Shown here: piece by piece, positions 34,567 to 54,773 of the stretch
Numbering within the stretch: the stretch's first letter is position 1
Layout: each line of letters starts with the position of its first letter
From: Anaeromyxobacteraceae bacterium
GTDB taxonomy: Bacteria > Myxococcota > Myxococcia > Myxococcales > Anaeromyxobacteraceae
Assembly: GCA_037443385.1 (NCBI GenBank)
Contig: JBBIOL010000003.1
Span: 2,542 to 66,541 of the forward strand
Direction: 5' to 3'
DNA length: 64,000 bases
Program-made: the position numbers and the translations under genes
Notes under the pieces: model-generated
Told to the model about the DNA's origin: nothing
Database searches by the model: none
Seen by the model: only the letters and a program-made list of their open reading frames with translations

Positions 34567-35532
34567 TCACCGTCCGTCGAGGTACTCGATCCGCGCCGCG
34601 GACCGGAGGTCGTCGACGAGGTCCCGGACGGCGGCCTCGCGCCTCTCCTGGAGGAGCCGGGCGCGGATCCCCGGGGCCACCCGTTCCTCGGGCATGGGCT
34701 CGCCGCCCCGCCGGGCCTCGACCCGGATCACGTGGAAGCCGAAGACCGTCTCGACCACCGGCGAGGTCCCGCCGTCCGCCAGCGCGAAGGCGGCGGCCTC
34801 GAACTCGGGGACCATCTTCCCGCGCGGGACCCAGCCCAGGTCGCCGCCGGAGGCGGCGCTCGCGTCCTGCGAGCGCCGGTGCGCCAGCCCGGCGAAGTCC
34901 GCGCCCGCGGCCGCGCGCCGCCGGATCTCCTCGGCCTCGGACCGGGCCCGGACCCGCTCCGGCTCCGGTGCGGTCGCCTCGGCCTTGCGGAGAACGTGGC
35001 GGACCCGGAGCTCGAGCGGGGTGGTGTACCGCTCCAGGTGGGCGAGGCGGTAGGCCTGCACGTCGGCGTCGTCCACCCGGACCGCGTCGAGCACCGGGGC
35101 GAGCAGGTTCTGGATGGAGGCCTGCCGCCGGGCCCAGTCGGGGAGCGTGGCCTCGGTGAGCCCGGCCCGCTCGAGCCTGCGGGCCAGCTCGCCCGGCGCG
35201 GCGTTCCGGGCGCGCAGCCCGGCGACGAGCGCGTCCACCTGGGCGGGGGTGGCCACCACCCCGCGGCGCACGGCCTCCTGCCAGAGCAGCTCGTCCTCCA
35301 CCAGCCGCTCGAGCGCCTCCCGCCGGTACTGCCGGTAGGCCTCCGGGTGGCGGATGCCCTGGGTGTTGCGCCCCTTCTGCACGAGGTAGTCCTCGAGGAA
35401 GCGGTCGGCGCGCTCGTTCGAGATGGCGGCGCCGTTCACGCGCACCGCGTCGCCGGCGTGCTGGGCCGGGACCGTGCAGGGGAGGGCGGCGAGCGCGAGC
35501 CCGGCGACCGCCGCCGAAAACCGCCGGATCAT
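34567..35532 (-). CDS. Exported parvulin-type peptidyl-prolyl cis-trans isomerase (PpiC/SurA-like); last gene of the MCO operon
   Basis: 321 aa from ATG 35532 (ATGA overlap with the upstream gene). It has the signal peptide MIRRFSAAVAGLALAAL and the parvulin motif GGDLGWVPRGKMVPEFEAAAF...FGFHVIRVE. Confidence 0.85.
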   Translation of the reverse strand: MIRRFSAAVAGLALAALPCTVPAQHAGDAVRVNGAAISNERADRFLEDYLVQKGRNTQGIRHPEAYRQYRREALERLVEDELLWQEAVRRGVVATPAQVDALVAGLRARNAAPGELARRLERAGLTEATLPDWARRQASIQNLLAPVLDAVRVDDADVQAYRLAHLERYTTPLELRVRHVLRKAEATAPEPERVRARSEAEEIRRRAAAGADFAGLAHRRSQDASAASGGDLGWVPRGKMVPEFEAAAFALADGGTSPVVETVFGFHVIRVEARRGGEPMPEERVAPGIRARLLQERREAAVRDLVDDLRSAARIEYLDGR

Positions 35533-37139
35533 TCGAGCGACCTCCAGGGCCCCACCGTGGCGAGCGAGCCCTTCGCCCCGTCCGGCTCCACGATCCAGCC
35601 GCCCAGCGCGCCGATGCGCCGGACCGGGCCGTAGGTGAGCGGGTGGGTGAGCCCGGTGGGGAAGTCGTAGAGCCCCTCCAGCGCGGCCACGAACCGCTCC
35701 CGGGAGAGCTGCCGCCCGCTGCGGCGCAGCCCCTCGACGAGCACGTCGAGGGCCACCAGCGCAGCCACCTGCGAGGTGCGGTTGCGGTCGGGGAGGCCCG
35801 CGGCCTCGCGGAGGCGGGAGAGCCCGGCCGCGCCCTCGGCGGACTCGTCGGCGGGCGAGCCGGGGAAGGCGAGCCGGATCCTCCCGCGGAACGCGGCCGG
35901 CGCCCGGGCCGCCGCGCGCGACGCCAGCGTCCCCGGGGCGAGGAGCCAGGGCGTGAAGCCGATCCCGGTCGCGGCGCGGGTGAAGGCCTCGAGCGCAGCG
36001 TCGCCACCCAGGAAGAGGACCGCGCGCACCCCCGTCGCCGCGAGGGCCCGGACCCGGTCGGCGTCGGGCACGGCGCCGGCCCAGGTGACCTCCCGGAGCG
36101 CCGCCCCGGCCTTGCCGAGCTCCTCGCGGGCCCCGGCGGCGGCGTCGGCGGCGCGGGGATCGTCGGGACGGACCACCGCGATCCGCGCCGGGTCGAGGGC
36201 GAGGTCGCGCACCGCGTGGGCGGCGAGGAGCCGGGCCTGCTCGCGCGGGCCCGACTGGAGGTGAAAGACCCACGGATTCGGCGGGTCCGCCTGCCGCGCG
36301 AGCAGCGTGAACGGGCCCACGACCGGGACCTTGCGCTCCTCGGCCGCCGTGGCGACGGCGTCCTCGGCGCCCGGGAAGAGGCCGGAGACGAGCGCGAAGA
36401 CCTCCCCGCCGGCGACGAGCCGCTCCGCCTCCGCCCGGCCGTCGCCCGCGTCGGAGTCGTAGCCCGCGACGACGAGCTCGAGCCTCCGGCCGTGGACGCC
36501 TCCCAGCCGGTTGCGCTCGTCGGCACGCGCGCGCAGGAGCCGGAGCATGCCCGCTCCGGTCTCGGCGAGGCGCCCCCGGTCGGGCAGGACCACCCCCAGG
36601 CGCACGGCCGCGGGCTCGATGCCGGGATCGAGGTCCCGGTCCACGACGCGCAGGTAGGCGAGGAGGCTCGCCAGGTCCGCGTCGGAGATGCGGTAGCGCG
36701 GCATGACCGGATCGAGCGGGTTCCCGGCGGGGTCGCGCCCCTCCCGGACGGCCCGTGCGAAGGTCCGCTCGTCGAAGGCCGGGTGGGACCGTCCGCCCGG
36801 GTGGGCGTGGCCGTAGGGCTTCGTGAGCGCGGTCCAGGTGACCTCGGTGGGGACCACGCCCCCCTCCGGACGCCCGAGCCCGTCGGCGCCGTGGCAGCTG
36901 CCGCAGGGAGCCGCCGATCCGGGGAGGACCGATCCCTCCCGGCCGATGCGCGCCTCGATCTCCCCGCCGGACGGGCTCTCGCCGGCGAGGAAGACCCGCT
37001 TGCCGTCCCGCTCCCGGGCCTCGAGCTCGAGGCCTGGCGCCGGTCGGGCGAGGGCGGCGAGGAGCAGCGCCGTGGCGAGCGCCACCCGGCGGGCGAAGGG
37101 CGGGCTCCGGCGGCACCGGGACCGATCTTCCGGGATCAT
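35529..37139 (-). CDS. Exported fusion of a mono-haem cytochrome c domain and a type-I periplasmic binding protein (Liv-like) domain
   Basis: 536 aa from ATG 37139. It has a signal peptide, CGSCHG (CxxCH; DNA 36891-36905) followed by MPRY, then about 380 aa with a Liv-type PBP pattern (RLGVVLP...VVAGYDS...VFALVSG...VPVVGP...). Confidence 0.75.
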   Translation of the reverse strand: MIPEDRSRCRRSPPFARRVALATALLLAALARPAPGLELEARERDGKRVFLAGESPSGGEIEARIGREGSVLPGSAAPCGSCHGADGLGRPEGGVVPTEVTWTALTKPYGHAHPGGRSHPAFDERTFARAVREGRDPAGNPLDPVMPRYRISDADLASLLAYLRVVDRDLDPGIEPAAVRLGVVLPDRGRLAETGAGMLRLLRARADERNRLGGVHGRRLELVVAGYDSDAGDGRAEAERLVAGGEVFALVSGLFPGAEDAVATAAEERKVPVVGPFTLLARQADPPNPWVFHLQSGPREQARLLAAHAVRDLALDPARIAVVRPDDPRAADAAAGAREELGKAGAALREVTWAGAVPDADRVRALAATGVRAVLFLGGDAALEAFTRAATGIGFTPWLLAPGTLASRAAARAPAAFRGRIRLAFPGSPADESAEGAAGLSRLREAAGLPDRNRTSQVAALVALDVLVEGLRRSGRQLSRERFVAALEGLYDFPTGLTHPLTYGPVRRIGALGGWIVEPDGAKGSLATVGPWRSLE

Positions 37140-37954
37140 CGACGCAGCGTAAGCGTTCGCGTGCCGGTCTGCACCGGTTGCGTCGGCGGGTGGCGGTCCA
37201 GGATCTCGCCCAGCACCCCACCGGCGCAGTCGAGGGCCTCGAGGGGCAGGTCGGACGACTGCCGGTAGCTGTAGCCCGAGCTGTCGAGCGTGATCGTGAA
37301 GTCGACGCTCCCGGTGGCGCCGATGCGGCTCAGGCACTGCCGGATCTCGGTGGAGGTCCGGAAGTCCTCCTCGACCGCGTCGAGGACCGACGCCGAGGAG
37401 GACGCACCGGCCGGGAGCAGGACCAGGAAGGCGGCCGTCGCGACGCCGTCCGGGTCCACCACGACGCGCTCGGCGATCGCCTTCACCCCCGGGTCGGTGG
37501 AGAGCTGCTCGTGCCAGGCGGAAGCCGGGGCCGGTCCGTCCACCCGGCAGAGCATGCCGGAGCAGGCCCCCCTCCAGGGCACGCTGCCGGCGGGCCAGAG
37601 CGCGGACAGCGCCGACGAGAGGCGGGAGAGGGCCGGCGGCGAGGGCGGGCTGCCGGCGCCGAACGCGTTCCGGAGCGAGAGGTAGCGACCGCGCCGCTCC
37701 TCGAGCTCGGAGAGGCGACGCTGCTCGGCCGGGTCGGAGACCTCGGTGGCGGTGCGCTCCCGGGCGCCGAGCGACCCGGGCGCGACGGCGGGAGCGGGCG
37801 CCGGAGCGGCGGTCTCCCCGCCTCCCGACCCGAACCAGGCCCAGGCGAGCACGAGCACGGCACCGAGCGCGGCGGCGACCCACCAGCCCCGGCGGGAGTG
37901 GCGCGATCCGGCCGGGTCAGTTCGCGGGGCGCGGGGTGGGGGCGCCTTCGCCAT
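37136..37954 (-). CDS. Hypothetical N-terminally anchored protein with four Cys in its exported domain
   Basis: 272 aa, overlapping both neighbours (38 nt and 4 nt). It has a basic N-terminus plus the TM segment WWVAAALGAVLVLAWAWF. No family is recognised. Confidence 0.55.
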   Translation of the reverse strand: MAKAPPPRAPRTDPAGSRHSRRGWWVAAALGAVLVLAWAWFGSGGGETAAPAPAPAVAPGSLGARERTATEVSDPAEQRRLSELEERRGRYLSLRNAFGAGSPPSPPALSRLSSALSALWPAGSVPWRGACSGMLCRVDGPAPASAWHEQLSTDPGVKAIAERVVVDPDGVATAAFLVLLPAGASSSASVLDAVEEDFRTSTEIRQCLSRIGATGSVDFTITLDSSGYSYRQSSDLPLEALDCAGGVLGEILDRHPPTQPVQTGTRTLTLRR

Positions 37955-38570
37955 GGCCCGGATCCTCGTCCGCGAGCCGCCGCAGCGTGTCGGCGATGGC
38001 GGCCGCCGGCATGTCGGGGCGGATCTTGGTCCAGTGGCCGGTGCGGACGTTGCCGGCCAGGAAGGCGGTGGTGTGGTCGCCCGGCTCCTCCGGCCACTCG
38101 CCGAGCCGCCTCGCCACGAAGGAGACGTTCTCCCTCTTCCCGCCCAGGAAGGACCAGTTCGAGTACACGGCCTCGTTCCGCCGCGCGAAGCGGGAGAGCT
38201 CGGCCGGCGTGTCGAAGTCCGGGTCCACCGACAGCGAGACGAGGCGGACCTCCCGGAAGCGGTCCCCGAGCGCGCGGCGCACTCCGTTCAGCTTCTGGCA
38301 GATGAGGGGGCAGGCGCTCTCGCAGCGGGTGAAGATGAAGCTCACGAGGACCACCTGGCCGTCGAGTACGTCGGAGAAGAAGCGCACGTTCTTCCCGTCC
38401 TGGTCCACGAGCACGGTGTCGGTGAACCAGTCGCGCGCCTTCTGGCGGCGCGCCTCCGGGCTCGCACGGGGCGACGGGCCGGCGGGCGGCGCCGGATCGG
38501 CGGCCCCGGCCGGGAGGGCGGCGGCCGCGGCAACCGCGGCGAGGAGGAGGGCGGGGATCCGGCGGCTCAC
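37917..38570 (-). CDS. SCO1/SenC-family copper chaperone (thioredoxin fold)
   Basis: 217 aa with a signal peptide, CxxxC in FIFTRCESACPLIC and a downstream conserved His (GDHTTAFL). Confidence 0.85.
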   Translation of the reverse strand: MSRRIPALLLAAVAAAAALPAGAADPAPPAGPSPRASPEARRQKARDWFTDTVLVDQDGKNVRFFSDVLDGQVVLVSFIFTRCESACPLICQKLNGVRRALGDRFREVRLVSLSVDPDFDTPAELSRFARRNEAVYSNWSFLGGKRENVSFVARRLGEWPEEPGDHTTAFLAGNVRTGHWTKIRPDMPAAAIADTLRRLADEDPGHGEGAPTPRPAN

Positions 38571-38571
38571 G

Positions 38572-39216
38572 TCACTGCACCCCGGCCGGGCCCGGGACGC
38601 GGGACGCGCCGATCGCGTCCACGCGGGCCAGGATGAGCTTCGCGTCGGGGAAGCCGTTGTAGCGGGTCCAGGTCCCCGTGCGCGCGTCCCCCACGAGCAC
38701 CATGGGCGGGTGATCGGTGAAGTTCGGCGTGTAGGCGCCCATGTCGCGCAGCACCCGCTCGACCACGTCCTTCGAGCCGGTGAGCCAGACCCAGCCCGGT
38801 CGCGCCTTCCAGCGCCTCGCGTAGGCCTTGAGCTTCGCCGGGGTGTCGCGGGCCGGGTCGAGCGTCACCGAGACCAGGAGCACGTCCTTGCCGAGGTGGT
38901 CGCCGAGCCGGTCCTGCATCCGGGAGAGGATCCCGGAGAGCACCGGGCACACCGTGGTGCAGGTGGTGAAGACGAAGTCGGCGATGACCGTCCGGTCTCC
39001 GGAGAGGAGCTCGCGCAGCCGGACCGGCCGGCCGTCCTGGTCCACGAGCTCGACGTCGGGCACGGTGACGCGGGCCTCGGCCACCGGGGGCGCCTTCTCA
39101 GCCCGGGTCACCTCGGCGGGGTGGCAGGGCGGCGCGGCGTCCTCGGCGGCGCCGGCCTGCGGGAGGGCGAGGAGCGCGGCGGCGACGAGCGCGGCGCGGG
39201 TTCGGGAACGGTTCAT
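38572..39216 (-). CDS. SCO1/SenC-family copper chaperone, second paralog
   Basis: 214 aa from ATG 39216, with a signal peptide, CxxxC in FVFTTCTTVCPVL and a conserved His (FTDHPPMVLV). Confidence 0.85.
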   Translation of the reverse strand: MNRSRTRAALVAAALLALPQAGAAEDAAPPCHPAEVTRAEKAPPVAEARVTVPDVELVDQDGRPVRLRELLSGDRTVIADFVFTTCTTVCPVLSGILSRMQDRLGDHLGKDVLLVSVTLDPARDTPAKLKAYARRWKARPGWVWLTGSKDVVERVLRDMGAYTPNFTDHPPMVLVGDARTGTWTRYNGFPDAKLILARVDAIGASRVPGPAGVQ

Positions 39217-41153
39217 GGAGCTCTCCCCGGGGGGGCCTCGACCACGACCCCCCGGTAGGGCACGTCGTTGCTCTTCACCTGGAGCGAAGGAACGGCGGCG
39301 AAGAAGTACCAGGCCCCGGCGCGGTCCACGAGCGCCTCGGCCTCGTAGACGCCTCCCCCGGCGCCGCGGGCCACCACCTCGTGGCGCGGTCCGCCGGGCA
39401 CCGCGTGGTAGAGCAGGGTGAGGTCGGCGACGCCGTCGCGCGGCTCGCGGGTGGCGGCGTCGGCGATGCGGAGCCGGATCGGGACCTTCGCGCCCACCGG
39501 GGCGCGGGACGGCACGTCGACGAACTCGACCAGCACGCCGCCCCGCTCCCTGCGCAGGGCCGCGTCGGGCAGGACCTCCGTGCCGAAGCAGTGCAGCACG
39601 CGCGGGTTGTCGAGCAGGAAGGCCACGTCGTAGCGCCCGGCGACCGGGAGGCGCACCTTGCCGGCGTAGACCCCCGGCTCGACCTCCGTCAGGCTCCGGT
39701 CCACCACCGTGGCCGCGAGCACGCGGTGCCCGTACCCGCCGTAGCTGCCCATGGGGGCGTTCATGCCCTCCATGTAGAAGTAGGTGTTCCCGTCGGCGGG
39801 GCTGGCCACGAAGACCGCGGCCTCGGTGGAGGCCTGGGCCACGGCGTCGGCCAGGGCCAGCTCGCCCGCGTCCTGCGGCGCGCCGGTCCCGGCGCCGAAC
39901 CCCTGGACGATGGGCTTCCTGCCCGCGCCCAGGCTCCCCAGGTTCACCATCTTCACCTGCGGGGAGTCGAGGAGCCGGACGTAGGCGAAGGCGCGGGTCA
40001 TCCCCACCTGGTAGGGCTTGCCCTCGAGCGGGATGGTGTGGACGGGCTGGTTGTCGGAGGCGTCGACGACGAGCACGGAACGCTCCGACGGGTTCACGAC
40101 GAAGGCGAACCGCCCGTCCTGGGTGAAGCGCAGCGGCCCCAGCCCGGGCTTCCCCTGGACGCGGGCCGTGACCTCCAGCCGGACCGGGTCCAGGACCGAG
40201 ACCGTGCCCGCCTTCCCGTCGGCCACGTAGACCGACTGGGAGAGGGAGGAGGTGGCGACGGCGATGGGGAGCGGCCCGGTCGGGAGGTCGGCGAGCTTGC
40301 GCAGCGTGGCCACGTCCACGACCGAGACCGTGCCCTCGTCCCGGTTGGTGACGAAGGCCCGGGCGCCGTCGGCGGAGAAGGCGATCTCGTGATGGCCGCG
40401 GCCGGTGACGACGAAGGCCACCTTTCCGCGGGTGGCGGTGTCGATCACGGTGACGCCGCTCCGGGCCGCGTCGGAGGCGTCGTTCGCCACCCACAGGTAC
40501 CGGCCGTCGGGCTGGATGGCGAGCCGCAGCGGGTCGGACCCCGCCGGCACCGACGCCGCGAGCCGGAAGGTCCCGGTGTCCACCACCGCCACCTCGCCGG
40601 CGCGGGGGAGGGAGACGTAGAGGAAGCGCCCGTCGGGGCTGCGGGTCCAGTCGCCGCCCGGGCGCTTCAGGACCACGCTGGCGAGCAGGCTGGTGTTGCC
40701 GGTCATGCTCACCACCGGGTCGATCACCGACAGGCTCGCGTCCCGGTTCAGGAGCACGAGGTAGTAGCTGTTCAGGTCGACGAGCGGACGGATGCCCACG
40801 CTGCCCTGGAGGTAGAGCGCCACCTTGTCCTTGCAGGCCCGTTCCTGCCCGGGCTTGCCGGCCACCACCGCGGCCATGTCCATCCAGGCGGCCGGCTTGG
40901 CGCCGGGAACGGGGCGGCCGCTCGCGACGTCGGTCATGCGGAAGCGGACCTCGGCGATCTCCCCCTCCCGGACCGGTCCGGGCTCGCCGGCCCGGACCAG
41001 CGAGAAGTCGATGGCCACGCCGTCGCGGACCACGCGCCGGTCCGGGTCCGGAGCCGCGGCGGGCTCGGACGCGGAGGCGGTGACGGCGGCGAGCAACGCC
41101 ACCGCCACCGCGACCGCCCCCGTCCCCACCCCCCCGCAGATGCCACGCGCCAC
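39213..41153 (-). CDS. Exported YVTN-type beta-propeller protein flanked by Ig-like (FixH/YtkA-like) domains
   Basis: 646 aa from GTG 41153 (GGGGAGG 8 nt upstream). It has a signal peptide and repeated blades such as PDGRFLYVSLPRAGEVAVVD, PDGRYLWVAND, ADGARAFVTNRDEGTVSVVD and QDGRFAFVVNPSERSVLVVD. The domain calls for the termini are tentative. Confidence 0.75.
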   Translation of the reverse strand: MARGICGGVGTGAVAVAVALLAAVTASASEPAAAPDPDRRVVRDGVAIDFSLVRAGEPGPVREGEIAEVRFRMTDVASGRPVPGAKPAAWMDMAAVVAGKPGQERACKDKVALYLQGSVGIRPLVDLNSYYLVLLNRDASLSVIDPVVSMTGNTSLLASVVLKRPGGDWTRSPDGRFLYVSLPRAGEVAVVDTGTFRLAASVPAGSDPLRLAIQPDGRYLWVANDASDAARSGVTVIDTATRGKVAFVVTGRGHHEIAFSADGARAFVTNRDEGTVSVVDVATLRKLADLPTGPLPIAVATSSLSQSVYVADGKAGTVSVLDPVRLEVTARVQGKPGLGPLRFTQDGRFAFVVNPSERSVLVVDASDNQPVHTIPLEGKPYQVGMTRAFAYVRLLDSPQVKMVNLGSLGAGRKPIVQGFGAGTGAPQDAGELALADAVAQASTEAAVFVASPADGNTYFYMEGMNAPMGSYGGYGHRVLAATVVDRSLTEVEPGVYAGKVRLPVAGRYDVAFLLDNPRVLHCFGTEVLPDAALRRERGGVLVEFVDVPSRAPVGAKVPIRLRIADAATREPRDGVADLTLLYHAVPGGPRHEVVARGAGGGVYEAEALVDRAGAWYFFAAVPSLQVKSNDVPYRGVVVEAPPGRAP

Positions 41154-41179: not shown

Positions 41180-44100
41180 CTACGGCGTCGCCCGGAGGAT
41201 ACCCCAGACCCCGGCCAGCCCCCCGAAGCCCGACCGGTCCATGAGCAGGTAGTCGCCGGTGATCGCGTTCGACCCGCCCACCCGCGGCAGCCGCAGCGTG
41301 AAGTGGGACGCCGGCTGGATCTGGTCCTGGGCCCCCATGGCGATGCTCGGGCCGTAGTCCCCGATCATCCGCGAGGCGACCTCCAGCGGGCCGATCCCGG
41401 TCGTGCTGGGATCGCCGGGGGTCGCTCCGGGGACGACCGCCGTTCCGGAGATGGTCGGGTAGAAGCCGGTGGGGTTGCAGTTGCCCGGGATGCCCATGTA
41501 GGACGAGTTGCACACGTAGGGCGACCGCTGCCAGACGTGGCCGTGGAGCGTGATCACGCTGGCCCGGTTGGCGCCGGTGGGCTCGAGGAGGTGGATGCGG
41601 GCCTCGGTCCCGGCCCTGGCGGTGAAGATGGGCGCGGACGGCTCGCCGCCCACGAGCGCGTTCGAGTAGGCGTCGCCCGCGTTCGACACCGTGCGGAAGC
41701 TGTTCGGCCCGGTGAAGGGCGTGTTGGGCGGCAGCCCGAAGCGGAACCAGAGCGGGTCGGTGCGGTAGTTGAGCGCCATCTCGCCCGAGTCCTCCGCGTC
41801 CTCGGCCACCGAGAACTCGGCCGCGATCTGCTCGACCGGCTCGCCGTCGCCGTAGCGGTGGGCCATGCCCTTCTGGATCACCGCCACGAAGTCGCGGATC
41901 GTCCCGTTCACCGTGGCCGAGACGCGCGTCTCGCGGCAGGCCGGGTTCGCGGCGGCGGTCTTCGGGGTGACGGCGGTGCAGTTCGCCACCACGCGGGCCT
42001 GGTTGTCCTGGACGTAGTCGGTCTCGGTCCAGGTGGAGCCCCGGGGAAGGACGACCAGCGCCCCTCCCGCGCCCTTCTGTCCGTGCTTGATGGGGTCGGC
42101 GGGCATGAGGTTCGTGCCGCCGTACTCGACCGGGGTCGCCACCAGGTTGAACGACGTGCCGGTGGCGGGGGACAGGCTGACGTCCCCGGCGTACCAGCGG
42201 TAGTTCACCGTCGCGCCCGGTGCGGCGATGTTGGCGTTCGGGTTCGAGCCCACCACCACGCCGGTGTCCTGCCGGACGTTGTGCGAGACGAGCGCCGGCC
42301 GGATGCCCACGTACGAGGACGGGCGCACGTTGTTGTTGTTGAAGGTGGTGAGGTCGCCGGTGCCGGTGGTGGTCGAGGGCACCGCTCCGCCGTCGCGGGT
42401 GATGGACGGCGGGAGGTGCTTCCAGCTCGGCAGATCGGGCATGGCGGCGGGCAGCTTGTTGCGCAGCTTCACCACCACGCAGTCGCCGGCCGCGGCGCGG
42501 AGCACGATCGGCTCCACCGGGGCCTGCGGGCGCAGCTTCACCGGGCAGGTGTAGTTCGTGGGCGTGAGCTTCCCGCTCGTGAGGCAGCGGGCGTCGGTGG
42601 CGCTCCGGGCCACGAGGTCGGCGGTCTTCACGTACAGGATGGCCGTCGGGTCGTGGAGCACGCCGCCCAGGTGGGCCGCCTGCGCGAAGGTCCCGCCGCC
42701 GTCGAGCACCTTGTTGAGCGCCGCGACGTTCGTGGCGCGCGGGTTGTAGACCAGCGTCCCGCCGGTCGAGACCAGCGGTCCGCCCGCGTGTTCCTTGGCG
42801 AGGTCGGGGTCGGCGGGGACGATGGTGGCGGCCACGGCGTTGTCGAGCACGTCGTTCGCGAGCACGGCGGTGAGGTCGTAGTTGCGGACCGGGGCCGTGG
42901 ACGGGCAGATGCCGGTGAACGCCTTGGTGTTGGCGAGCGAGATGGGCACGGTGGTGTTGGGCAGCTTGAAGAGGTCGGTCTGGGCGGAGTTGTAGGTGCG
43001 GAGCAGGCCCCAGGCGCCGTTCCAGTAGCCGTCCATCGAGGTGTTGATGGAGTACAGGTAGTCCGCCGTGGTGGCGGCGCCGAGCACCGGGAGGGCCGGG
43101 GTCGCGAAGGCGAACTGCTCGGAGATGCCGGCGTGCTGCGCGTTGCGCCAGCCGGAGTTGGGCGAGAACCCGTAGCCCGATCCTCCCTGCAGCCACTTCA
43201 TGCCGCCGATGCTGACGGTGTGCGACTCCTCGTCGCCGCCGGCCTGGATGCGCATGCGGATCCGGTCGCCGTAGTAGGCGCGCATCATGGGGGTGAACGG
43301 GTCGCCGGCCCTGAGGGCGGTGGGCTGGTTCAGCGGGGGCGGGAAGCGGGTCCCGTTGATCACGGTCTTGGCGTTGGGCTGCACGTTCAGGGCGGCGATG
43401 GCGCGATCGGTGCGGCTGTCGAACGCGAAGGCCAGGTCGCCGGCCAGGCCGGCGGTCTGGGCGCCCGGGCGGCCGTCGGGGCCGACGGCGGCCGGGTTGT
43501 AGACGCGGTAGCCGATGGGCTCGTTGCGGTAGTTCACCACGAAGAAGCCCGGGTCGTCGGCCGAGATGGCCTCCGGGCAGGGGCGGGGCACGCCGCCGAA
43601 GCAGCCCTGGGCGATGACGATGGTGTCGGGGAAGGCGCCCTGCTTGCCGAACCGGCCGGTGGCCTGCTCCTTCGTCGAGGCGTTCACCGCCAGGCGGAAG
43701 GTGTCGGTGGTGGGATCCTGCCCGCGCTCGCCGTCCTGGCCACGGCCGACGTAGACGCCCGGCTTGTAGGCGTGCTGGAAGTCCGTGTACTCGAAGTAGA
43801 ACTCGCGGTAGCTGTCGTTCTTGCCGTCGCCGTCGACGTCGCCGGTGAGGATGGCCGCCTGCCAGCTGGTCGGGCCGCCATCCTGCCGGCCGCCGTCGCC
43901 CACGCGGGTGCGGTCGCCGAGCTGGAGCCCGGTCTCGTTGTGCGCCCACTGGGAGTTGGGCGGCTCCACCAGGACGGTGGCGTACAGGCCGATCTGCTGG
44001 TGCGTGGACGGGCCGAAGTGGTCATGGGTGAAGATGGTGCCGAGGCCGCGGTGCACGCCGGCCACGTTCACCACCGGGTCGGAGAACCAGCGCTCCAGCG

Positions 44101-47100
44101 TGGTCCGGGCGCCCTTCCAGGCCGGCGCCCCGTCCGCGGACCAGATCTTGGCGGGCTGCAGCGGCCCGAAGTACGGGTGGTCCTCGGCCTGCAGGGGGGC
44201 GTTGAGGGCGTTGCCCTTGCTGTTCGCCGGGTTGCCCGCGCCGGTGGGGTTGAAGGCGTTGATGGCGCGGATGCGCTCGCGCACCGCGTCGGGGGAGAGC
44301 GTGCCGTCCTCGTAGTTCCAGCCATTGGCCGACCCGTCGGTGGTGGTGAGGTCCCACTTGGGCAGGTGGATGTGCTGGCCGATGATGTCGGTGGTGGTGC
44401 GGATCTGGTAGTCGTCGAGCTCGTACACCGACGGCACCAGGTTCGTGTGCTGGTACATCACGCAGTCGAAGGTGTTCATCCGCATCACGAACGGCTCGGG
44501 CGGCTTCTTCTTGGTGATGACCGGGAGCGCGTCCCCCCAGAGCACGCCGATGCGCTCCTGCGGGTAGTGGAACCCGAGCTTGTTGAGCACCGCGTCGAAC
44601 TGGATGTTGGCGCCCTTGTAGATGCGCGGGCTGTCGGCGTGGAAGGCGGAGGTGCCGGTGGTCGAGGTGCCGCCGCGGCCGTCGAAGAAGTTCCCGCCGG
44701 CGCTGCGGAAGACCTTTCCGGTGTCGTCGATGCAGGGCTCGTGGAACGGGGCCCCCGCGACGGGGCGCCCGGAGCCGTTGGTGACGAAGCCCGCCTGCCG
44801 GACCGACCGGTCGAGGCCGAGCGCGAAAGTGGGGTGGGTGCGCACCGAGTGGAAGGCCATGGCCGACTGCTCCACGTCGGTCCCGGTCTCCGGGTACCAG
44901 ACCGCCTTCGCCTTCTTGAGCTCCTTCGTCATGTCGAGCCGCGACTCGACGCTGTGCGCGCAGGCGGCGCGCGCCTGGGCGGGGGACTGGCCCTGCGTCG
45001 GCGTGCAGCCCGAGGCGGCGAAGCCGTCGAGGGCGTGGCGCGGGAGGCCGCCGTCGAAGCCGCCGGCGCGGGTGTCCATGTCGAGCGGGGGAGACGGCAT
45101 GCGCTGCCCGACGGTGTCCTCCAGGCCGGCGAGCCAGAAGGGGAAGCCGGGGTTCTTCACCGGCTTGAAGCCCGGGGTGTAGGAGCCCGGCGGGGCGCTC
45201 GCCACCGCCGAGACGATCCCGGGGTCGGTCTCGGGCGTACGGGCCACGCGGGCCACGCTGCCGAGCACGGTCGCGCCGTCCGGGGCCAGCTTGGGAACCA
45301 CCGCGACCGAGCCGGGCATGGGGGCCATGGGCTTGCCGGGCAGCGGCACGAGCGCCGGGATGGGGGTTCCGACCGCGATCTCGCCGTCGGGCAGGGAGCG
45401 GGCGCGGGCGTTCGTGAGGCCCGCCACGGTCACCGGCGCCGGGGTGCCGTCCTGCAGCGCCCAGGGCGAGGCGTGGAAGCCGCCCTTGCTCACCGCGAGC
45501 GGCGTGCCCAGCTCCATCACGTCGTGGTTGCGCCAGAGCTCCCACATGCCCTGGGCGAAGTGCGGGTAGAAGTGGCAGTGGAAGATGGCGTCGCCGGCGC
45601 TCTTGTTGCGGTTGCCGGACCCGCCGAAGTTGATCTCGTAGGTGTAGCCGGCGCCGGGGCCGATGCCCTGGGCGTCGAGGTAGTTGGAGTTGTCGTCGTT
45701 GGGGTTGAAGAGCCACTGGTGGTTGTGCAGGTGGAAGATGTGGTGCTCCTTCCCCGTGTGCACGTTGCGGAACTTGACGTGGTCGCCGATGTAGCTGTGG
45801 TGCACGTTGGACGGGTCGTCGGGATAGAAGGCCCGGGTGGCCTTGGGACCCACCGCCGTGCACGGACCCACCGTGAAGCCGGGAGGCGCGCAGGCCTCGA
45901 GACCGGTGGTGGCGGGCACGTCCACCACCATGGCCGGGTCGCCCACCGCCGGGGAGGTGAGGAAGAACTCCTCGTAGGCGCAGTCCAGGCAGTCGTGCAT
46001 GGGGCCCACGCCGAGCCGGTTGGCGATCACCTCGGGGCCGATGGCGCCCGAGCCGTAGTTCACCTGGAACACGTCGCCCACGGCGTGCAGCGTGTGGGCG
46101 AGCGGGTTCTGGACGCCGTTGATGAGCCTCGCGAACCAGAGCGGGAAGGCGTTGGCGACCGCCATCTCGTCGTGGAACACCACCGTGTACTCGCGGAAGG
46201 GCTCGAGCCGGTTGGGCAGCGTGGGGTTGGTGTAGCCGAGCGACTCGAGCGGGTAGGTGGAGGGCGGGAAGTTCCCGTCGGGAGAGCCGGGGGGCCCGGC
46301 GATGATGGCGTTCAGGTCGGAGTGCGCCAGGGTCGCCCCGTCGAGCATGTTGAGCACCGGCGCGCCGGCCTTGCCCTCGCGGACCCAGACGCTCGGGCTC
46401 GTGACGGTCACGACCGCCCCGGTGGCGTCCAGGGCCTGGACCGTGGTGCCCGAGGGCCAGGCCTGTGCGAGGACCCGGGGAACGGTGACGGGCGCGCCCA
46501 GGTCGGTGGTGGCGGTGATGGTGGCTCCGGCGAGCCAGCTCCGCGTGGTGCCGGTCGCGAGCAGGAACCCGTTCGGGGTCGCGGGGTCGAGGGTGTAGGC
46601 GAGCGTCTCGGTGGCCGTTCCGTCGGAGAGGGTGAGGAATCCGGCGCCGGCGAAGGGCGCCGACTGGCGGGTGGGATCGGTGGCGGTGACGAGGGCGGTC
46701 GCGCCGGCGGCGACGTCGGCCGAGGCGGCGATGGTCGGCGTGCCGGTGCCGGTCAGGGTGAATCCGGTCGCGGTCGCCGTGTAGGAGAAGGTCTCGGCGG
46801 TTCCGGCGCCGGCCGGGACGATCTTCAGGGTGCCCGTGGCTGCGAAGGGCGGCGTGAGCGTGGTCGGATCGCTCGCCGTGGCGAGGATGGCGGTCCCGGC
46901 CGCGGCGGCGGCGCTCGTGGTGGTGGCGACGGGGGTCGAGGTGGTGGCCGGGTAGCGGGCCTCGTAGTCCAGGATGGGGTGGCCGCTGCAGGTGTAGCCG
47001 GGGGTGCCCGGGCAGGAGGCGGCGTTGCCCACGTCCACGGCGAGGCGCAGCTCCTCCTCGGTGACCTGGCTGCGGTAGAAGCGGGCGCCGGGCGGCTCCA

Positions 47101-47779
47101 CGTTCACCACCGCGAACATGCCGTTGGCGCTGTTGCCGGCCGCGCCGTCGGAGCCGAACACGGCGCCGTGGCTGGTGACGAGGAAGGTGCCCTCCTTGGG
47201 CGCGTAGTACTGGTAGGTGGTGCTCGCCCCCGGGCCCACGAGGCCCGACGACGTGGCGGCGCCGACGAGCGACCCGTCGTCCTTCATGGAGGTGAGGAGC
47301 TCGAGCCCCTGGGCGTGGAACGAGGCACGCCGATCCACCACCTGGTTGTCGACGAGCAGGTTCGGGTGGGGGGCGTTGGCCGGGTTGGCGCCGGGGGCGA
47401 GGAGGTTCTGGAAGGCCACCTCCAGGCAGTCGCCGGCCGCCACGCGCAGGACGAGCGGGCGCGGGCGCTTGTCCGGGCGGAGCGTCACCGCTCCGGCGGC
47501 GCAGGCGGTCCCGCACGCCTGCTGCGTGGTGCGCGAGACCACGTCGCGCCGCAGCGCGTACATGATCCCGTTCACGTTCTGCGACCCGAGGCGGTTGAAC
47601 ATGATGGGCTGGTCGAAGACCACCACGTCGGCCTTGACGGTCCGCGTGCAGGTGACCTGCGCGCCGGCGTCGAGGGGGGCCAGGAGCGCGATCCCGGCCG
47701 CTCCGATGACCACCAGTGAAAGGCGCGCGTTCCGTCCGGCGCCGCCTGCCCGCTTCCGCATCGCGTTGTCGCCCTGCAT
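41180..47779 (-). CDS. Giant (2,199-aa) exported multicopper-oxidase-like protein
   Basis: ATG 47779 has GGAGG 7 nt upstream, and the product has a Sec-type signal peptide. Copper-ligand motifs are HHIFHLHNH (45719-45745), HCHFYPHFAQGM (45545-45580), HIH (44366-44374), THDHFGPSTH (44000-44029) and LHGH (41537-41548). Confidence 0.85.
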   Translation of the reverse strand: MQGDNAMRKRAGGAGRNARLSLVVIGAAGIALLAPLDAGAQVTCTRTVKADVVVFDQPIMFNRLGSQNVNGIMYALRRDVVSRTTQQACGTACAAGAVTLRPDKRPRPLVLRVAAGDCLEVAFQNLLAPGANPANAPHPNLLVDNQVVDRRASFHAQGLELLTSMKDDGSLVGAATSSGLVGPGASTTYQYYAPKEGTFLVTSHGAVFGSDGAAGNSANGMFAVVNVEPPGARFYRSQVTEEELRLAVDVGNAASCPGTPGYTCSGHPILDYEARYPATTSTPVATTTSAAAAAGTAILATASDPTTLTPPFAATGTLKIVPAGAGTAETFSYTATATGFTLTGTGTPTIAASADVAAGATALVTATDPTRQSAPFAGAGFLTLSDGTATETLAYTLDPATPNGFLLATGTTRSWLAGATITATTDLGAPVTVPRVLAQAWPSGTTVQALDATGAVVTVTSPSVWVREGKAGAPVLNMLDGATLAHSDLNAIIAGPPGSPDGNFPPSTYPLESLGYTNPTLPNRLEPFREYTVVFHDEMAVANAFPLWFARLINGVQNPLAHTLHAVGDVFQVNYGSGAIGPEVIANRLGVGPMHDCLDCAYEEFFLTSPAVGDPAMVVDVPATTGLEACAPPGFTVGPCTAVGPKATRAFYPDDPSNVHHSYIGDHVKFRNVHTGKEHHIFHLHNHQWLFNPNDDNSNYLDAQGIGPGAGYTYEINFGGSGNRNKSAGDAIFHCHFYPHFAQGMWELWRNHDVMELGTPLAVSKGGFHASPWALQDGTPAPVTVAGLTNARARSLPDGEIAVGTPIPALVPLPGKPMAPMPGSVAVVPKLAPDGATVLGSVARVARTPETDPGIVSAVASAPPGSYTPGFKPVKNPGFPFWLAGLEDTVGQRMPSPPLDMDTRAGGFDGGLPRHALDGFAASGCTPTQGQSPAQARAACAHSVESRLDMTKELKKAKAVWYPETGTDVEQSAMAFHSVRTHPTFALGLDRSVRQAGFVTNGSGRPVAGAPFHEPCIDDTGKVFRSAGGNFFDGRGGTSTTGTSAFHADSPRIYKGANIQFDAVLNKLGFHYPQERIGVLWGDALPVITKKKPPEPFVMRMNTFDCVMYQHTNLVPSVYELDDYQIRTTTDIIGQHIHLPKWDLTTTDGSANGWNYEDGTLSPDAVRERIRAINAFNPTGAGNPANSKGNALNAPLQAEDHPYFGPLQPAKIWSADGAPAWKGARTTLERWFSDPVVNVAGVHRGLGTIFTHDHFGPSTHQQIGLYATVLVEPPNSQWAHNETGLQLGDRTRVGDGGRQDGGPTSWQAAILTGDVDGDGKNDSYREFYFEYTDFQHAYKPGVYVGRGQDGERGQDPTTDTFRLAVNASTKEQATGRFGKQGAFPDTIVIAQGCFGGVPRPCPEAISADDPGFFVVNYRNEPIGYRVYNPAAVGPDGRPGAQTAGLAGDLAFAFDSRTDRAIAALNVQPNAKTVINGTRFPPPLNQPTALRAGDPFTPMMRAYYGDRIRMRIQAGGDEESHTVSIGGMKWLQGGSGYGFSPNSGWRNAQHAGISEQFAFATPALPVLGAATTADYLYSINTSMDGYWNGAWGLLRTYNSAQTDLFKLPNTTVPISLANTKAFTGICPSTAPVRNYDLTAVLANDVLDNAVAATIVPADPDLAKEHAGGPLVSTGGTLVYNPRATNVAALNKVLDGGGTFAQAAHLGGVLHDPTAILYVKTADLVARSATDARCLTSGKLTPTNYTCPVKLRPQAPVEPIVLRAAAGDCVVVKLRNKLPAAMPDLPSWKHLPPSITRDGGAVPSTTTGTGDLTTFNNNNVRPSSYVGIRPALVSHNVRQDTGVVVGSNPNANIAAPGATVNYRWYAGDVSLSPATGTSFNLVATPVEYGGTNLMPADPIKHGQKGAGGALVVLPRGSTWTETDYVQDNQARVVANCTAVTPKTAAANPACRETRVSATVNGTIRDFVAVIQKGMAHRYGDGEPVEQIAAEFSVAEDAEDSGEMALNYRTDPLWFRFGLPPNTPFTGPNSFRTVSNAGDAYSNALVGGEPSAPIFTARAGTEARIHLLEPTGANRASVITLHGHVWQRSPYVCNSSYMGIPGNCNPTGFYPTISGTAVVPGATPGDPSTTGIGPLEVASRMIGDYGPSIAMGAQDQIQPASHFTLRLPRVGGSNAITGDYLLMDRSGFGGLAGVWGILRATP
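46558..46890 (-). repeat. In-frame tandem duplication (about 65-aa period) of a Thr/Ala-rich segment inside the MCO gene
   Basis: The copies are ILATASDPTTLTPPFAATGTL...GTAETFSYT...GFTL (about 46754-46890) and LVTATDPTRQSAPFAGAGFL...GTATETLAYT...GFLL (about 46558-46693). Confidence 0.6.
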
Positions 47780-48256
47780 GAGACCTCCGACTCCGGCCCT
47801 TCCGGGCCATCTGCGCGTCCCCGGTGCCCCGGTGCCCTGCTTGCGACCGCCGGCCCGCCCGCGAAAAGAAAACTGGACCGCGTCGCTCCACTTCGTCCCG
47901 GGAACGACTGGTACTCGCTTCGATCTGGGACCGCCCGTCCCTTCATCGAGTGACACTCGCGTGACCCAACTTCTTGGAATCACGAAAGTAAACGTGAATC
48001 GGAATTTTAGGGCTCGACCGAGCAAGCGCGGGTGGATCCCCTCAACCGCGCCCGGTTCCACCGGAAAGGAAAAGTTGACCCTGATCAATGATTAGAGGAG
48101 ATCAAGAAACCAGGGGCGCCCCGCCACGTTCACCATGAGTAAATGCGGCACCCGACGTCCCAGATGGGTGGTGGGTGGAAGAGTACCGGGGTCGCGGGAC
48201 GGGACGGGCCATCGCGGAGCGCGATCCCGTCCGTCCTGGGCTAGCTTCGTGCTGCG
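47780..48256. promoter_or_regulatory. 477-bp divergent intergenic control region with a markedly lower-GC core (about 47860-48130)
   Basis: I found no credible ORF here. It contains A/T runs (GAAAAGAAAACTGG, GAAAGTAAACGTGAATCGGAATTTTAG, GGAAAGGAAAAGTTGACC). It also has repeated GATCAA motifs and a tandem CCGGTGCC CCGGTGCC at 47821-47836. Confidence 0.6.
48196..48236 (+). promoter_or_regulatory. Long imperfect GC-rich hairpin (about 17 bp in three helices) 20 nt upstream of the LssY-like gene
   Basis: GGGACGGGACGGGCCATCGCG-GAG-CGCGATCCCGTCCGTCC. The ATCGCG/CGCGAT core is perfect and the outer arms pair with two small bulges. Confidence 0.45.
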
Positions 48257-54592: not shown

Positions 54593-54773
54593 GCGCCGGA
54601 AGCTCCGTCCGGCCCCGGGGGGCACCCAGTCGCGGGAGGAAGGGACGCGGCGGTCTCCGGATGGGGCGCAAGGAAGAATTCGTCCGTAAATCGCGCGACA
54701 GGGCGACGGCGAGCCCGGATCCCAACCTCCCTCCCGGACGGCGCGAACCCACCCGTCCCACGGGGGGAAGCGA

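Follow-up and report, generated by a model that had tools for sequence, protein, structure and literature searches.

Manganese-oxidizing multicopper oxidases (MCOs) of the MnxG type provide the closest described systems for the protein considered here. In Pseudomonas putida GB-1, deletion of mnxG makes Mn(II) removal about tenfold slower (PMC11930936), and the operon of this gene (PputGB1_2447) encodes, in addition to MnxG, a YVTN beta-propeller protein, two SCO1 proteins, a cytochrome c-binding protein and SurA (PMC11409713 Table 4). An analysis of bacterial six-domain oxidases in 2013, in which PputGB1_2447 was included, described a single type-1 (T1) copper site in domain 2, a trinuclear site shared by domains 2 and 3, and residual ligands elsewhere; the trinuclear ligands of the algal ferroxidase Fox1 of Chlamydomonas are reported to lie in domains 2 and 3, like those of the bacterial six-domain oxidases (PMC3600357). 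The present analysis concerns a giant MCO encoded at 41180-47779 on the minus strand of a 64,000-nucleotide stretch of DNA (hereafter, the window) from an Anaeromyxobacteraceae bacterium (GenBank assembly GCA_037443385.1, contig JBBIOL010000003.1, positions 2,542 to 66,541). With a probability of roughly 0.72, this protein is an exported six-cupredoxin-domain oxidase of the P. putida MnxG type, which leads a seven-gene operon and carries one active copper centre. The six-domain architecture (published in 2013), a curated family model and a homolog structure (released in 2024) are already known, and the locus represents no new kind of biology; what is new here is minor, namely a lineage-specific insert of 172 amino acids (aa) and one extra operon gene. 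The analysis provides a residue-level map of a large, little-studied enzyme family, covering 12 catalytic residues, four scaffold domains, structural cysteines and operon partners.

Regarding the gene itself, the GC contents of 0.65, 0.54 and 0.96 at codon positions 1, 2 and 3 show that the reading frame is real, and the long open reading frames (ORFs) in the other frames are shadow ORFs of the kind expected at 73-75% GC. The coding sequence and its putative signal peptide, which would direct export by the Sec route, are as follows.

41180..47779 (-): giant MCO coding sequence, 2,199 aa, six-domain, assigned to the Pseudomonas-type MnxG family; third-codon-position GC 0.96; NF041487 match of 2169.8 bits; identical to a 2,199-aa protein already contained in public collections (P0001).
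47657..47779 (-): N-terminal signal peptide read from the translation, residues 1-41, MQGDNAMRKRAGG...LLAPLDAGA/QV, Sec-like, without a twin-arginine motif.

A search of NCBIfam returned a sole match, NF041487 (copper_ox_MnxG, "manganese-oxidizing multicopper oxidase MnxG"), which is a Pseudomonas-type model of 1,894 positions. The match is nearly full length and collinear in two stretches, the better of which joins residues 463-2197 to profile positions 239-1893, and the break between them falls at the lineage-specific insert (residues 280-451). A Zestomonas protein (P0116), which passes the curated equivalog cut-off of this model (3,100 bits) with 3869 bits, is 55% identical to the giant MCO overall. 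The identity reaches 78% in the copper core of domain 2 (residues 654-760) and 68% in domain 3, and is 43-48% in domains 5 and 6, implying that selection is focused on the catalytic pair. In a PDB sequence search, MnxG of Bacillus sp. PL-12 (9bxa_A) was matched in collinear pieces (E 3.6e-61), and two-domain laccases were matched at residues 662-748 (E about 1e-6). On these sequence comparisons, the giant MCO is a member of the Pseudomonas-type MnxG family, and an earlier note on this DNA had rightly called it a giant multicopper oxidase. Pfam recognizes only a Cu-oxidase_3 domain (domain 1, residues 143-224) and a sub-threshold FG-GAP in the full protein, and nothing more was found when ten separate segments were searched against Pfam. 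Because Pfam sees so little, the domain assignment rests on hhalign and structure prediction.

For the domain assignment, a family alignment of 64 homologs (A1) was cut into segments, which were compared profile against profile with hhalign. The odd-numbered domains proved to be related to each other (domains 1 and 5, 99.2% probability; 3 and 5, 94.9%; 1 and 3, 66-81%), as did the even-numbered ones (4 and 6, 96.8%; 2 and 6, 70.5%), and all pairs of an odd with an even domain stayed below 4%. This pattern reveals three tandem odd-plus-even cupredoxin units and hence six domains. AlphaFold2 (AF2) models of the two halves point in the same direction. Model A (residues 41-1240; predicted local distance difference test (pLDDT) 77.3, predicted template modelling score (pTM) 0.81) and model B (residues 1000-2199; pLDDT 85.4, pTM 0.90) both have 9bxa_A as their top Foldseek match (E 1.5e-19 for model A; E 3.4e-48 and template modelling (TM) score 0.50 for model B), and the next matches of model B are ceruloplasmin (E about 1e-16) and factors V/VIII; laccases are also among the Foldseek matches of the models. 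The profile comparisons and the models together make it very probable that the giant MCO is built of three tandem two-domain units, as in MnxG and ceruloplasmin. The domains and the linker are arranged as follows.

47060..47656 (-): domain 1, about residues 42-240, odd-type cupredoxin lacking copper ligands; Cu-oxidase_3 at 143-224; related to domain 5 (99.2%); beta-rich in model A, pLDDT about 90.
45515..46387 (-): domain 2, about residues 465-755, even-type cupredoxin with the only predicted T1 site and one half of the trinuclear cluster; aligns with Bacillus MnxG 254-361 and, at 662-748, with two-domain laccases.
44750..45514 (-): linker of domains 2 and 3, about residues 756-1010, family-wide and ordered; pLDDT mostly 85-95, sparse secondary structure, no Pfam match.
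43895..44749 (-): domain 3, about residues 1011-1295, odd-type cupredoxin with the other half of the predicted trinuclear cluster; aligns with Bacillus MnxG 451-616; related to domain 5 (94.9%) and domain 1 (81%).
42980..43579 (-): domain 4, about residues 1401-1600, even-type cupredoxin lacking copper ligands; related to domain 6 (96.8%); aligns with Bacillus MnxG 690-818; pLDDT >90.
42035..42916 (-): domain 5, about residues 1622-1915, odd-type cupredoxin into which a beta subdomain is inserted; related to domain 1 (99.2%); model B; C1625-C1767 in 64/64 homologs.
41183..41962 (-): domain 6, about residues 1940-2199, even-type cupredoxin whose sites are degenerate; hhalign of domain 2 against domain 6; aligns with Bacillus MnxG domain 6 (LHGHYW).

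The linker of domains 2 and 3 contains many invariant columns (e.g., P877 to R914), and Bacillus MnxG has no counterpart of such length.

Regarding the copper sites, 12 canonical ligands are invariant in all 64 homologs, which extend down to 55% identity. Motif mapping assigns H680, C735, H740 and M745, all in domain 2, to the T1 site, and H683, H685, H734 and H736 of domain 2 together with H1136, H1138, H1252 and H1254 of domain 3 to the trinuclear cluster. The motifs and their evidence are listed below.

45719..45742 (-): HxxHxH, with H680 for T1, H683 and H685 for the trinuclear cluster, plus an invariant H687; 64/64 homologs; aligns with HxxHxH of solved small laccases.
45545..45580 (-): HCHxxxHxxxxM, with H734 and H736 for the trinuclear cluster and C735, H740 and M745 for T1; 64/64 homologs; aligns with HCH of Bacillus MnxG.
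44366..44374 (-): HIH 1136-1138, first HxH of odd-type domain 3 (trinuclear); 64/64 homologs; aligns with HIH of Bacillus MnxG.
44018..44026 (-): HDH 1252-1254 within GTIFTHDHFGPSTHQQIGLYA, second HxH of odd-type domain 3 (trinuclear); 64/64 homologs; aligns with FFHDHLF of Bacillus MnxG.

The motif mapping shows one predicted catalytic copper set, which is held by the pair of domains 2 and 3 only, in agreement with the published description of the bacterial six-domain multicopper blue proteins (PMC3600357). HCHxxxHxxxxM would be expected by chance 5e-6 times per protein of this composition, and H740 aligns with the engineered H340A mutation site of 9bxa. Both domain-2 motifs match their counterparts in solved small laccases and in Bacillus MnxG position by position. 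With its cupredoxin domains, the T1 signature HxxHxH...HCHxxxHxxxxM and eight His in four HxH motifs, the giant MCO has the sequence hallmarks of the multicopper oxidase superfamily and is predicted to bind four copper ions and to reduce O2 to water. Domains 1, 4, 5 and 6 keep relics of ligands at most, such as H155, H1520 and H2079; in domain 4, H1520 is the sole retained position and matches the T1 ligand H680 in the alignment of even domains, and in the LHGH motif of domain 6, H2079 matches H685 and H2081 matches H687 when domains 2 and 6 are compared by hhalign. In the GDYLLMD motif of domain 6, the invariant D2181 takes the place of the T1 Cys.

The cysteines of the protein show the same singularity. 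Among the 25 Cys, 24 form 12 sequence-local pairs that are gained or lost together across the homologs, and C735 is unpaired. For example, C630-C640 occurs with both, a single or neither Cys in 35, 1 and 28 homologs, respectively, C1732-C1745 in 46, 0 and 18, and C2090-C2101 in 47, 0 and 17. The 12 co-varying pairs and the lone C735 support the presence of only one T1 Cys as well as a disulfide-bonded state of the protein outside the cytoplasm, with which the Sec-like signal peptide is consistent. The earlier note had located its motifs accurately in the translation of 41180-47779 (-): HHIFHLHNH is found at residues 679-687, HCHFYPHFAQGM at 734-745, HIH at 1136-1138, THDHFGPSTH at 1251-1260, LHGH at 2078-2081 and DGDGKND at 1316-1322, and the strand LVLRVAAGDCLEVAFQNLL at 109-127 (DNA 47455-47399) recurs as IVLRAAAGDCVVVKLRNKL at 1758-1776 (DNA 42508-42452). 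Its proposal of a single Cys-containing T1 site is upheld by C735 being the only T1 Cys, and its view of the oxidase domains as partly degenerate agrees with the several copper-degenerate domains.

The acidic loop WLFNPNDDNSNYL (residues 689-701; 45677-45715) is highly conserved and directly follows HxxHxH, with a pLDDT of <50; lying beside the T1 site, it is a candidate for binding the metal substrate. In domain 6 (41183-41545), the non-canonical residues H2079, H2081, H2159, D2176 and D2181 vary little or not at all across the family, with H2081, D2176 and D2181 invariant. To judge from this conservation, they could form a second metal site at the interface of domains 1 and 6; a related possibility is that such a site, as a relic of an ancestral domain 1/6 cluster, serves Mn binding or oxide nucleation. 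A C597-L-D-C600 motif (45980-45991) is a CxxC that is invariant in 64/64 homologs within the conserved PMHDCLDCAYEEFFL, in a helical insert of domain 2, and it may form a disulfide or handle a metal. The stretch with this insert spans 84 residues in the giant MCO versus 34 in Bacillus MnxG.

The giant MCO is the first of seven genes on the same strand, which overlap or are separated by gaps of a few bases to 38 nt. The six genes that follow are listed below, with synteny counts referring to the genes downstream of the MCO in 80 related loci, where most misses are due to truncated contigs.

39213..41153 (-): gene 2, 646-aa periplasmic beta-propeller protein (cytochrome D1/YncE-like) carrying a YtkA-like domain at its C-terminus; Pfam; starts 26 nt past the MCO stop; 70/80 loci.
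38572..39216 (-): gene 3, SCO1/SenC copper chaperone (CxxxC); PF02630, E 7e-19; syntenic in 63/80 loci.
37917..38570 (-): gene 4, second SCO1/SenC copper chaperone; PF02630, E 3e-16; syntenic in 63/80 loci.
37136..37954 (-): gene 5, 272-aa membrane-anchored protein, confined to the Anaeromyxobacter lineage; shares 36% identity with its positional counterpart in A. oryzae; 3/80 loci.
35529..37139 (-): gene 6, cytochrome c fused to a periplasmic binding protein; Pfam Cytochrom_C and Peripla_BP_6; syntenic in 61/80 loci; in the GB-1 operon list (PMC11409713).
34567..35532 (-): gene 7, SurA-N plus PpiC-type peptidyl-prolyl isomerase; Pfam; syntenic in 53/80 loci; in the GB-1 operon list (PMC11409713).

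The operon of P. putida GB-1 equals the one described here minus the gene of the 272-aa protein, for which neither a Pfam nor a PDB match was found, and the gene order also matches Zestomonas carbonaria and A. oryzae. As a side observation, two other pseudomonad loci (L059 and L083) have the oxidase without accessory genes within 9 kb downstream; the three Pseudomonas loci that lack downstream accessory genes, including that of P. jinjuensis, are not N-masked.

In comparison with known systems, P. putida GB-1 MnxG is similar to the giant MCO in its near full-length profile match, its invariant ligands and its six-gene operon. Unlike its P. putida counterpart, the giant MCO is about 250 aa longer owing to the 172-aa insert between domains 1 and 2, has an extra gene in its operon, falls below the equivalog cut-off, and comes from an Anaeromyxobacteraceae-like host of 73-75% GC rather than from a pseudomonad. 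Bacillus sp. PL-12 MnxG is homologous across all six domains and shares the T1 HCH in domain 2, HIH and HDH in domain 3, and LHGH and GDYL in domain 6; however, it comprises 1,227 aa versus 2,199 aa, the identity in the structural alignment is about 17-18%, and its domain 6 retains HxxHxHxH, whereas that of the giant MCO retains the last two His only. Regarding the small subunits of the Mnx complex (MnxE3F3G), the PDB search with the giant MCO and the 272-aa protein matched no 9bxa chain besides MnxG, and the other operon products belong to different Pfam families. Ceruloplasmin, hephaestin and factors V/VIII share the fold of six cupredoxin domains paired into three units (Foldseek E about 1e-16, TM 0.35-0.40). 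Unlike the ceruloplasmin-type oxidases, the giant MCO has its cluster ligands in domains 2 and 3 and its T1 site in domain 2 only, and a ceruloplasmin-type ligand layout was not found in domains 1, 4 and 6, where H155, H1520 and H2079 are the only relics. The C-terminal half of domain 2 aligns motif for motif (HxxHxH and HCHxxxHxxxxM) with the two-domain small laccases (SLAC-type; 3cg8 and 4n8u; E about 1e-6), and a two-domain unit of this kind is presumably the building block of the giant MCO. The trinuclear site of the small laccases is located between the chains of a trimer; in contrast, the giant MCO fuses three units in one chain and has lost two of the three potential sites. Fox1, likened to the giant MCO by its published description only, differs in being a eukaryotic ferroxidase.

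In the proposed mechanism, H680, C735, H740 and M745 of domain 2 would coordinate the T1 copper, and the H734-C735-H736 triad would link it to the trinuclear cluster of domains 2 and 3. Single electrons from a metal substrate would enter at the T1 site, most likely from Mn(II) and then Mn(III), with Mn oxide precipitating, and O2 would be reduced to water at the trinuclear cluster. The protein would cross the membrane unfolded through Sec, form about 12 disulfides and gain copper outside the cytoplasm, with the two SCO1/SenC proteins, the beta-propeller protein's YtkA-like domain and the SurA/PpiC-type folding factor as putative helpers. The conservation of the copper core relative to P0116, taken together with the deletion phenotype of GB-1 mnxG, suggests that the giant MCO probably oxidizes Mn(II), to which we attach a somewhat better than even chance. 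The evidence for Mn oxidase activity is genetic and comes from P. putida GB-1 only, and the assignment here is a prediction by analogy. The earlier note had regarded the substrates of giant MCOs as mostly unresolved, which is not wholly so in view of that tenfold effect on Mn oxidation in the prototype (PMC11930936).

Concerning the architecture, the earlier note had proposed two fused, partly degenerate MCO-like units arising from an internal duplication with a spacing of about 1,650 residues, which amounts to an active first unit and a degenerate second one, and had taken HDH 1252-1254 for an HCH motif with Asp in place of Cys. The self-match behind this proposal is real: the offset of 1649 gives the top 19-residue self-match of the protein, with 12 of 19 residues identical against at most 10 in 60 shuffles, the strands at 109 and 1758 are homologous as parts of domains 1 and 5, and domains 5 and 6 are copper-degenerate. 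However, the xVxRxxxxDC strand occurs in three copies, LVLRVAAGDC at 109-118 (domain 1), FVMRMNTFDC at 1097-1106 (domain 3) and IVLRAAAGDC at 1758-1767 (domain 5), and the Cys of each copy pairs with another one close to the beginning of the respective domain (C44-C118, C1016-C1106 and C1625-C1767). The odd domains are related to one another, as are the even ones, with three of each kind, and the fold matches the six-domain MnxG and ceruloplasmin, so that six cupredoxin domains in three units, not two oxidase units, are predicted, and the C-terminal half, for which a relationship to cupredoxins had been in question, belongs to them according to its matches to Bacillus MnxG and ceruloplasmin. 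Cu-oxidase_3-type domains of laccases carry two N-terminal HxH motifs; since HIH and HDH are located in such an odd-type domain, HDH is not a degenerate HCH. It aligns with HDH of Bacillus MnxG and supplies, with HIH, the four invariant trinuclear His of domain 3, and the Asp at the T1-Cys position is D2181 of domain 6 instead of D1253. A fusion of two units is thus very improbable. Less credible still is a non-catalytic structural or adhesive cupredoxin protein comparable to coagulation factors V and VIII, as might be imagined from four of six domains without copper ligands, the long insertions and the Thr/Ala-rich module; the 12 catalytic ligands are invariant down to 55% identity, the conservation peaks in the copper-bearing domains, and genes for copper chaperones are in the same operon.

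A six-domain oxidase of the MnxG type with one copper centre is therefore the preferred reading, and several points weigh against it or against its Mn(II) assignment. The substrate specificity of multicopper oxidases is not readable from their copper ligands, and the roles of the accessory genes are deduced from family names only. With 2169.8 bits, the giant MCO does not reach the NF041487 equivalog cut-off of 3,100 bits; the same holds for each of the four relatives tested from outside Pseudomonas (Anaeromyxobacter, Archangium and Geobacteraceae; 2131-2551 bits). The T1 loops 686-702 and 735-745 have a pLDDT of <50 in model A, which ends without the last strands of domain 3. Furthermore, Anaeromyxobacter has been described as reducing Mn rather than oxidizing it (PMC12569786). 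These points leave room for an enzyme of the same architecture and copper chemistry whose substrate is not Mn(II) but Fe(II), Cu(I) or an organic/phenolic compound, to which the MnxG label would not be transferable. The score under the cut-off, the metal reduction known for the host lineage, the lineage-specific operon gene and protein insert, and the very diverse physiologies within the family, including nitrifiers and a Methanoperedens metagenome-assembled genome (MAG), would all fit such a substrate. On the other side, the catalytic core is 78-80% identical to that of Pseudomonas-type MnxG, including the acidic loop NPNDDNSNYLDAQ adjoining the T1 motifs, the entire accessory operon is conserved, and a homolog is present in the Mn-oxidizing Rubrivivax strain A210 (PMC8218464); we consider a non-Mn substrate unlikely. 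Of slightly greater, still doubtful, standing is the idea that a member of the Anaeromyxobacteraceae, belonging to a group characterized as Mn(IV)-reducing, has a functional, lineage-adapted Mn(II)-oxidase operon with a variable-copy Thr/Ala-rich module and an extra membrane-anchored subunit. If this were true, one organism could run both halves of the manganese cycle.

The long insertions of the protein, which the earlier note had pointed out, are indeed present, and together with a calcium-loop-like motif they add the following features to the domain list.

46427..46942 (-): Thr/Ala-rich lineage-specific insert, residues 280-451 (172 aa), between domains 1 and 2; absent from >70% of the 64 homologs; no Pfam match.
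43814..43840 (-): DxDxDGxxD loop, D1314-D1322, a possible Ca2+ site; direct reading; pLDDT 83-90; sub-threshold FG-GAP.

The insert appears to consist of two units of about 65 aa with the pattern DPTxxxxPFxxxGxLxxxxxGxAETxxYTxxxxxGFxLxGTGT, of which, among the nearest relatives, one copy is present in P0002 and two copies are present in P0003 and P0006, and none in the rest of the family. A BLAST self-comparison of the insert revealed no significant repeat, and the two-unit reading is based on inspection and on the difference in copy number among the homologs. In the AF2 model, the insert has short strands with pLDDT values of 33-76. Each Asp of the D1314-D1322 loop is kept in 37-43 of the 64 homologs (about 60-70%).

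Regarding the distribution of the family, at least 491 relatives of the giant MCO were found in the protein database, of which the closest are from Anaeromyxobacteraceae and most have 1,900-2,000 aa. In a scan of GTDB with one genome per species, at least 567 species genomes were found to contain a gene for a relative, and an exhaustive search with residues 1000-2199 yielded 627 representative clusters at E<=1e-30; the "few giant MCOs" of which the earlier note spoke are thus a large family. The carriers listed include Pseudomonas, Burkholderiales (including Rubrivivax sp. A210), Hyphomonas, Nitrosomonas, Nitrospira, Acidobacteriota, Chloroflexota and a Methanoperedens MAG. Operons of the mnxG type are common well outside Pseudomonas, as in Myxococcota, Acidobacteriota, nitrifiers and the Methanoperedens MAG, which matters for metagenome-based estimates of manganese-cycling potential. 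MnxG-type genes with a downstream beta-propeller gene were observed in a Candidatus Methanoperedens nitroreducens MAG (L075), Nitrospira (L073) and Nitrosomonas (L071); their occurrence in nitrifiers and in the MAG of an archaeal methanotroph could reflect horizontal transfer or binning contamination. In Pseudomonas jinjuensis (L024, 9001-24977), three copies of the giant oxidase are arranged in tandem.

In the surroundings of the operon, the flanks consist of housekeeping genes with uniform GC, which led us to reject a mobile element or horizontal island as its context. The region 47960-48090 upstream of the giant MCO is markedly lower in GC than the rest of the window and may hold the promoter. 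A sigma-54 promoter, expected if regulation resembled that by MnxR of GB-1, was sought by eye at 47780-48250, and nothing convincing was seen in this inspection, which is not a formal test. A few kb further upstream (51962-57194), a PKD-repeat protein of 1,124 aa and a di-haem cytochrome c peroxidase (MauG-like) protein of 834 aa are encoded on opposite strands, and their maximal ORFs overlap by about 650 nt.

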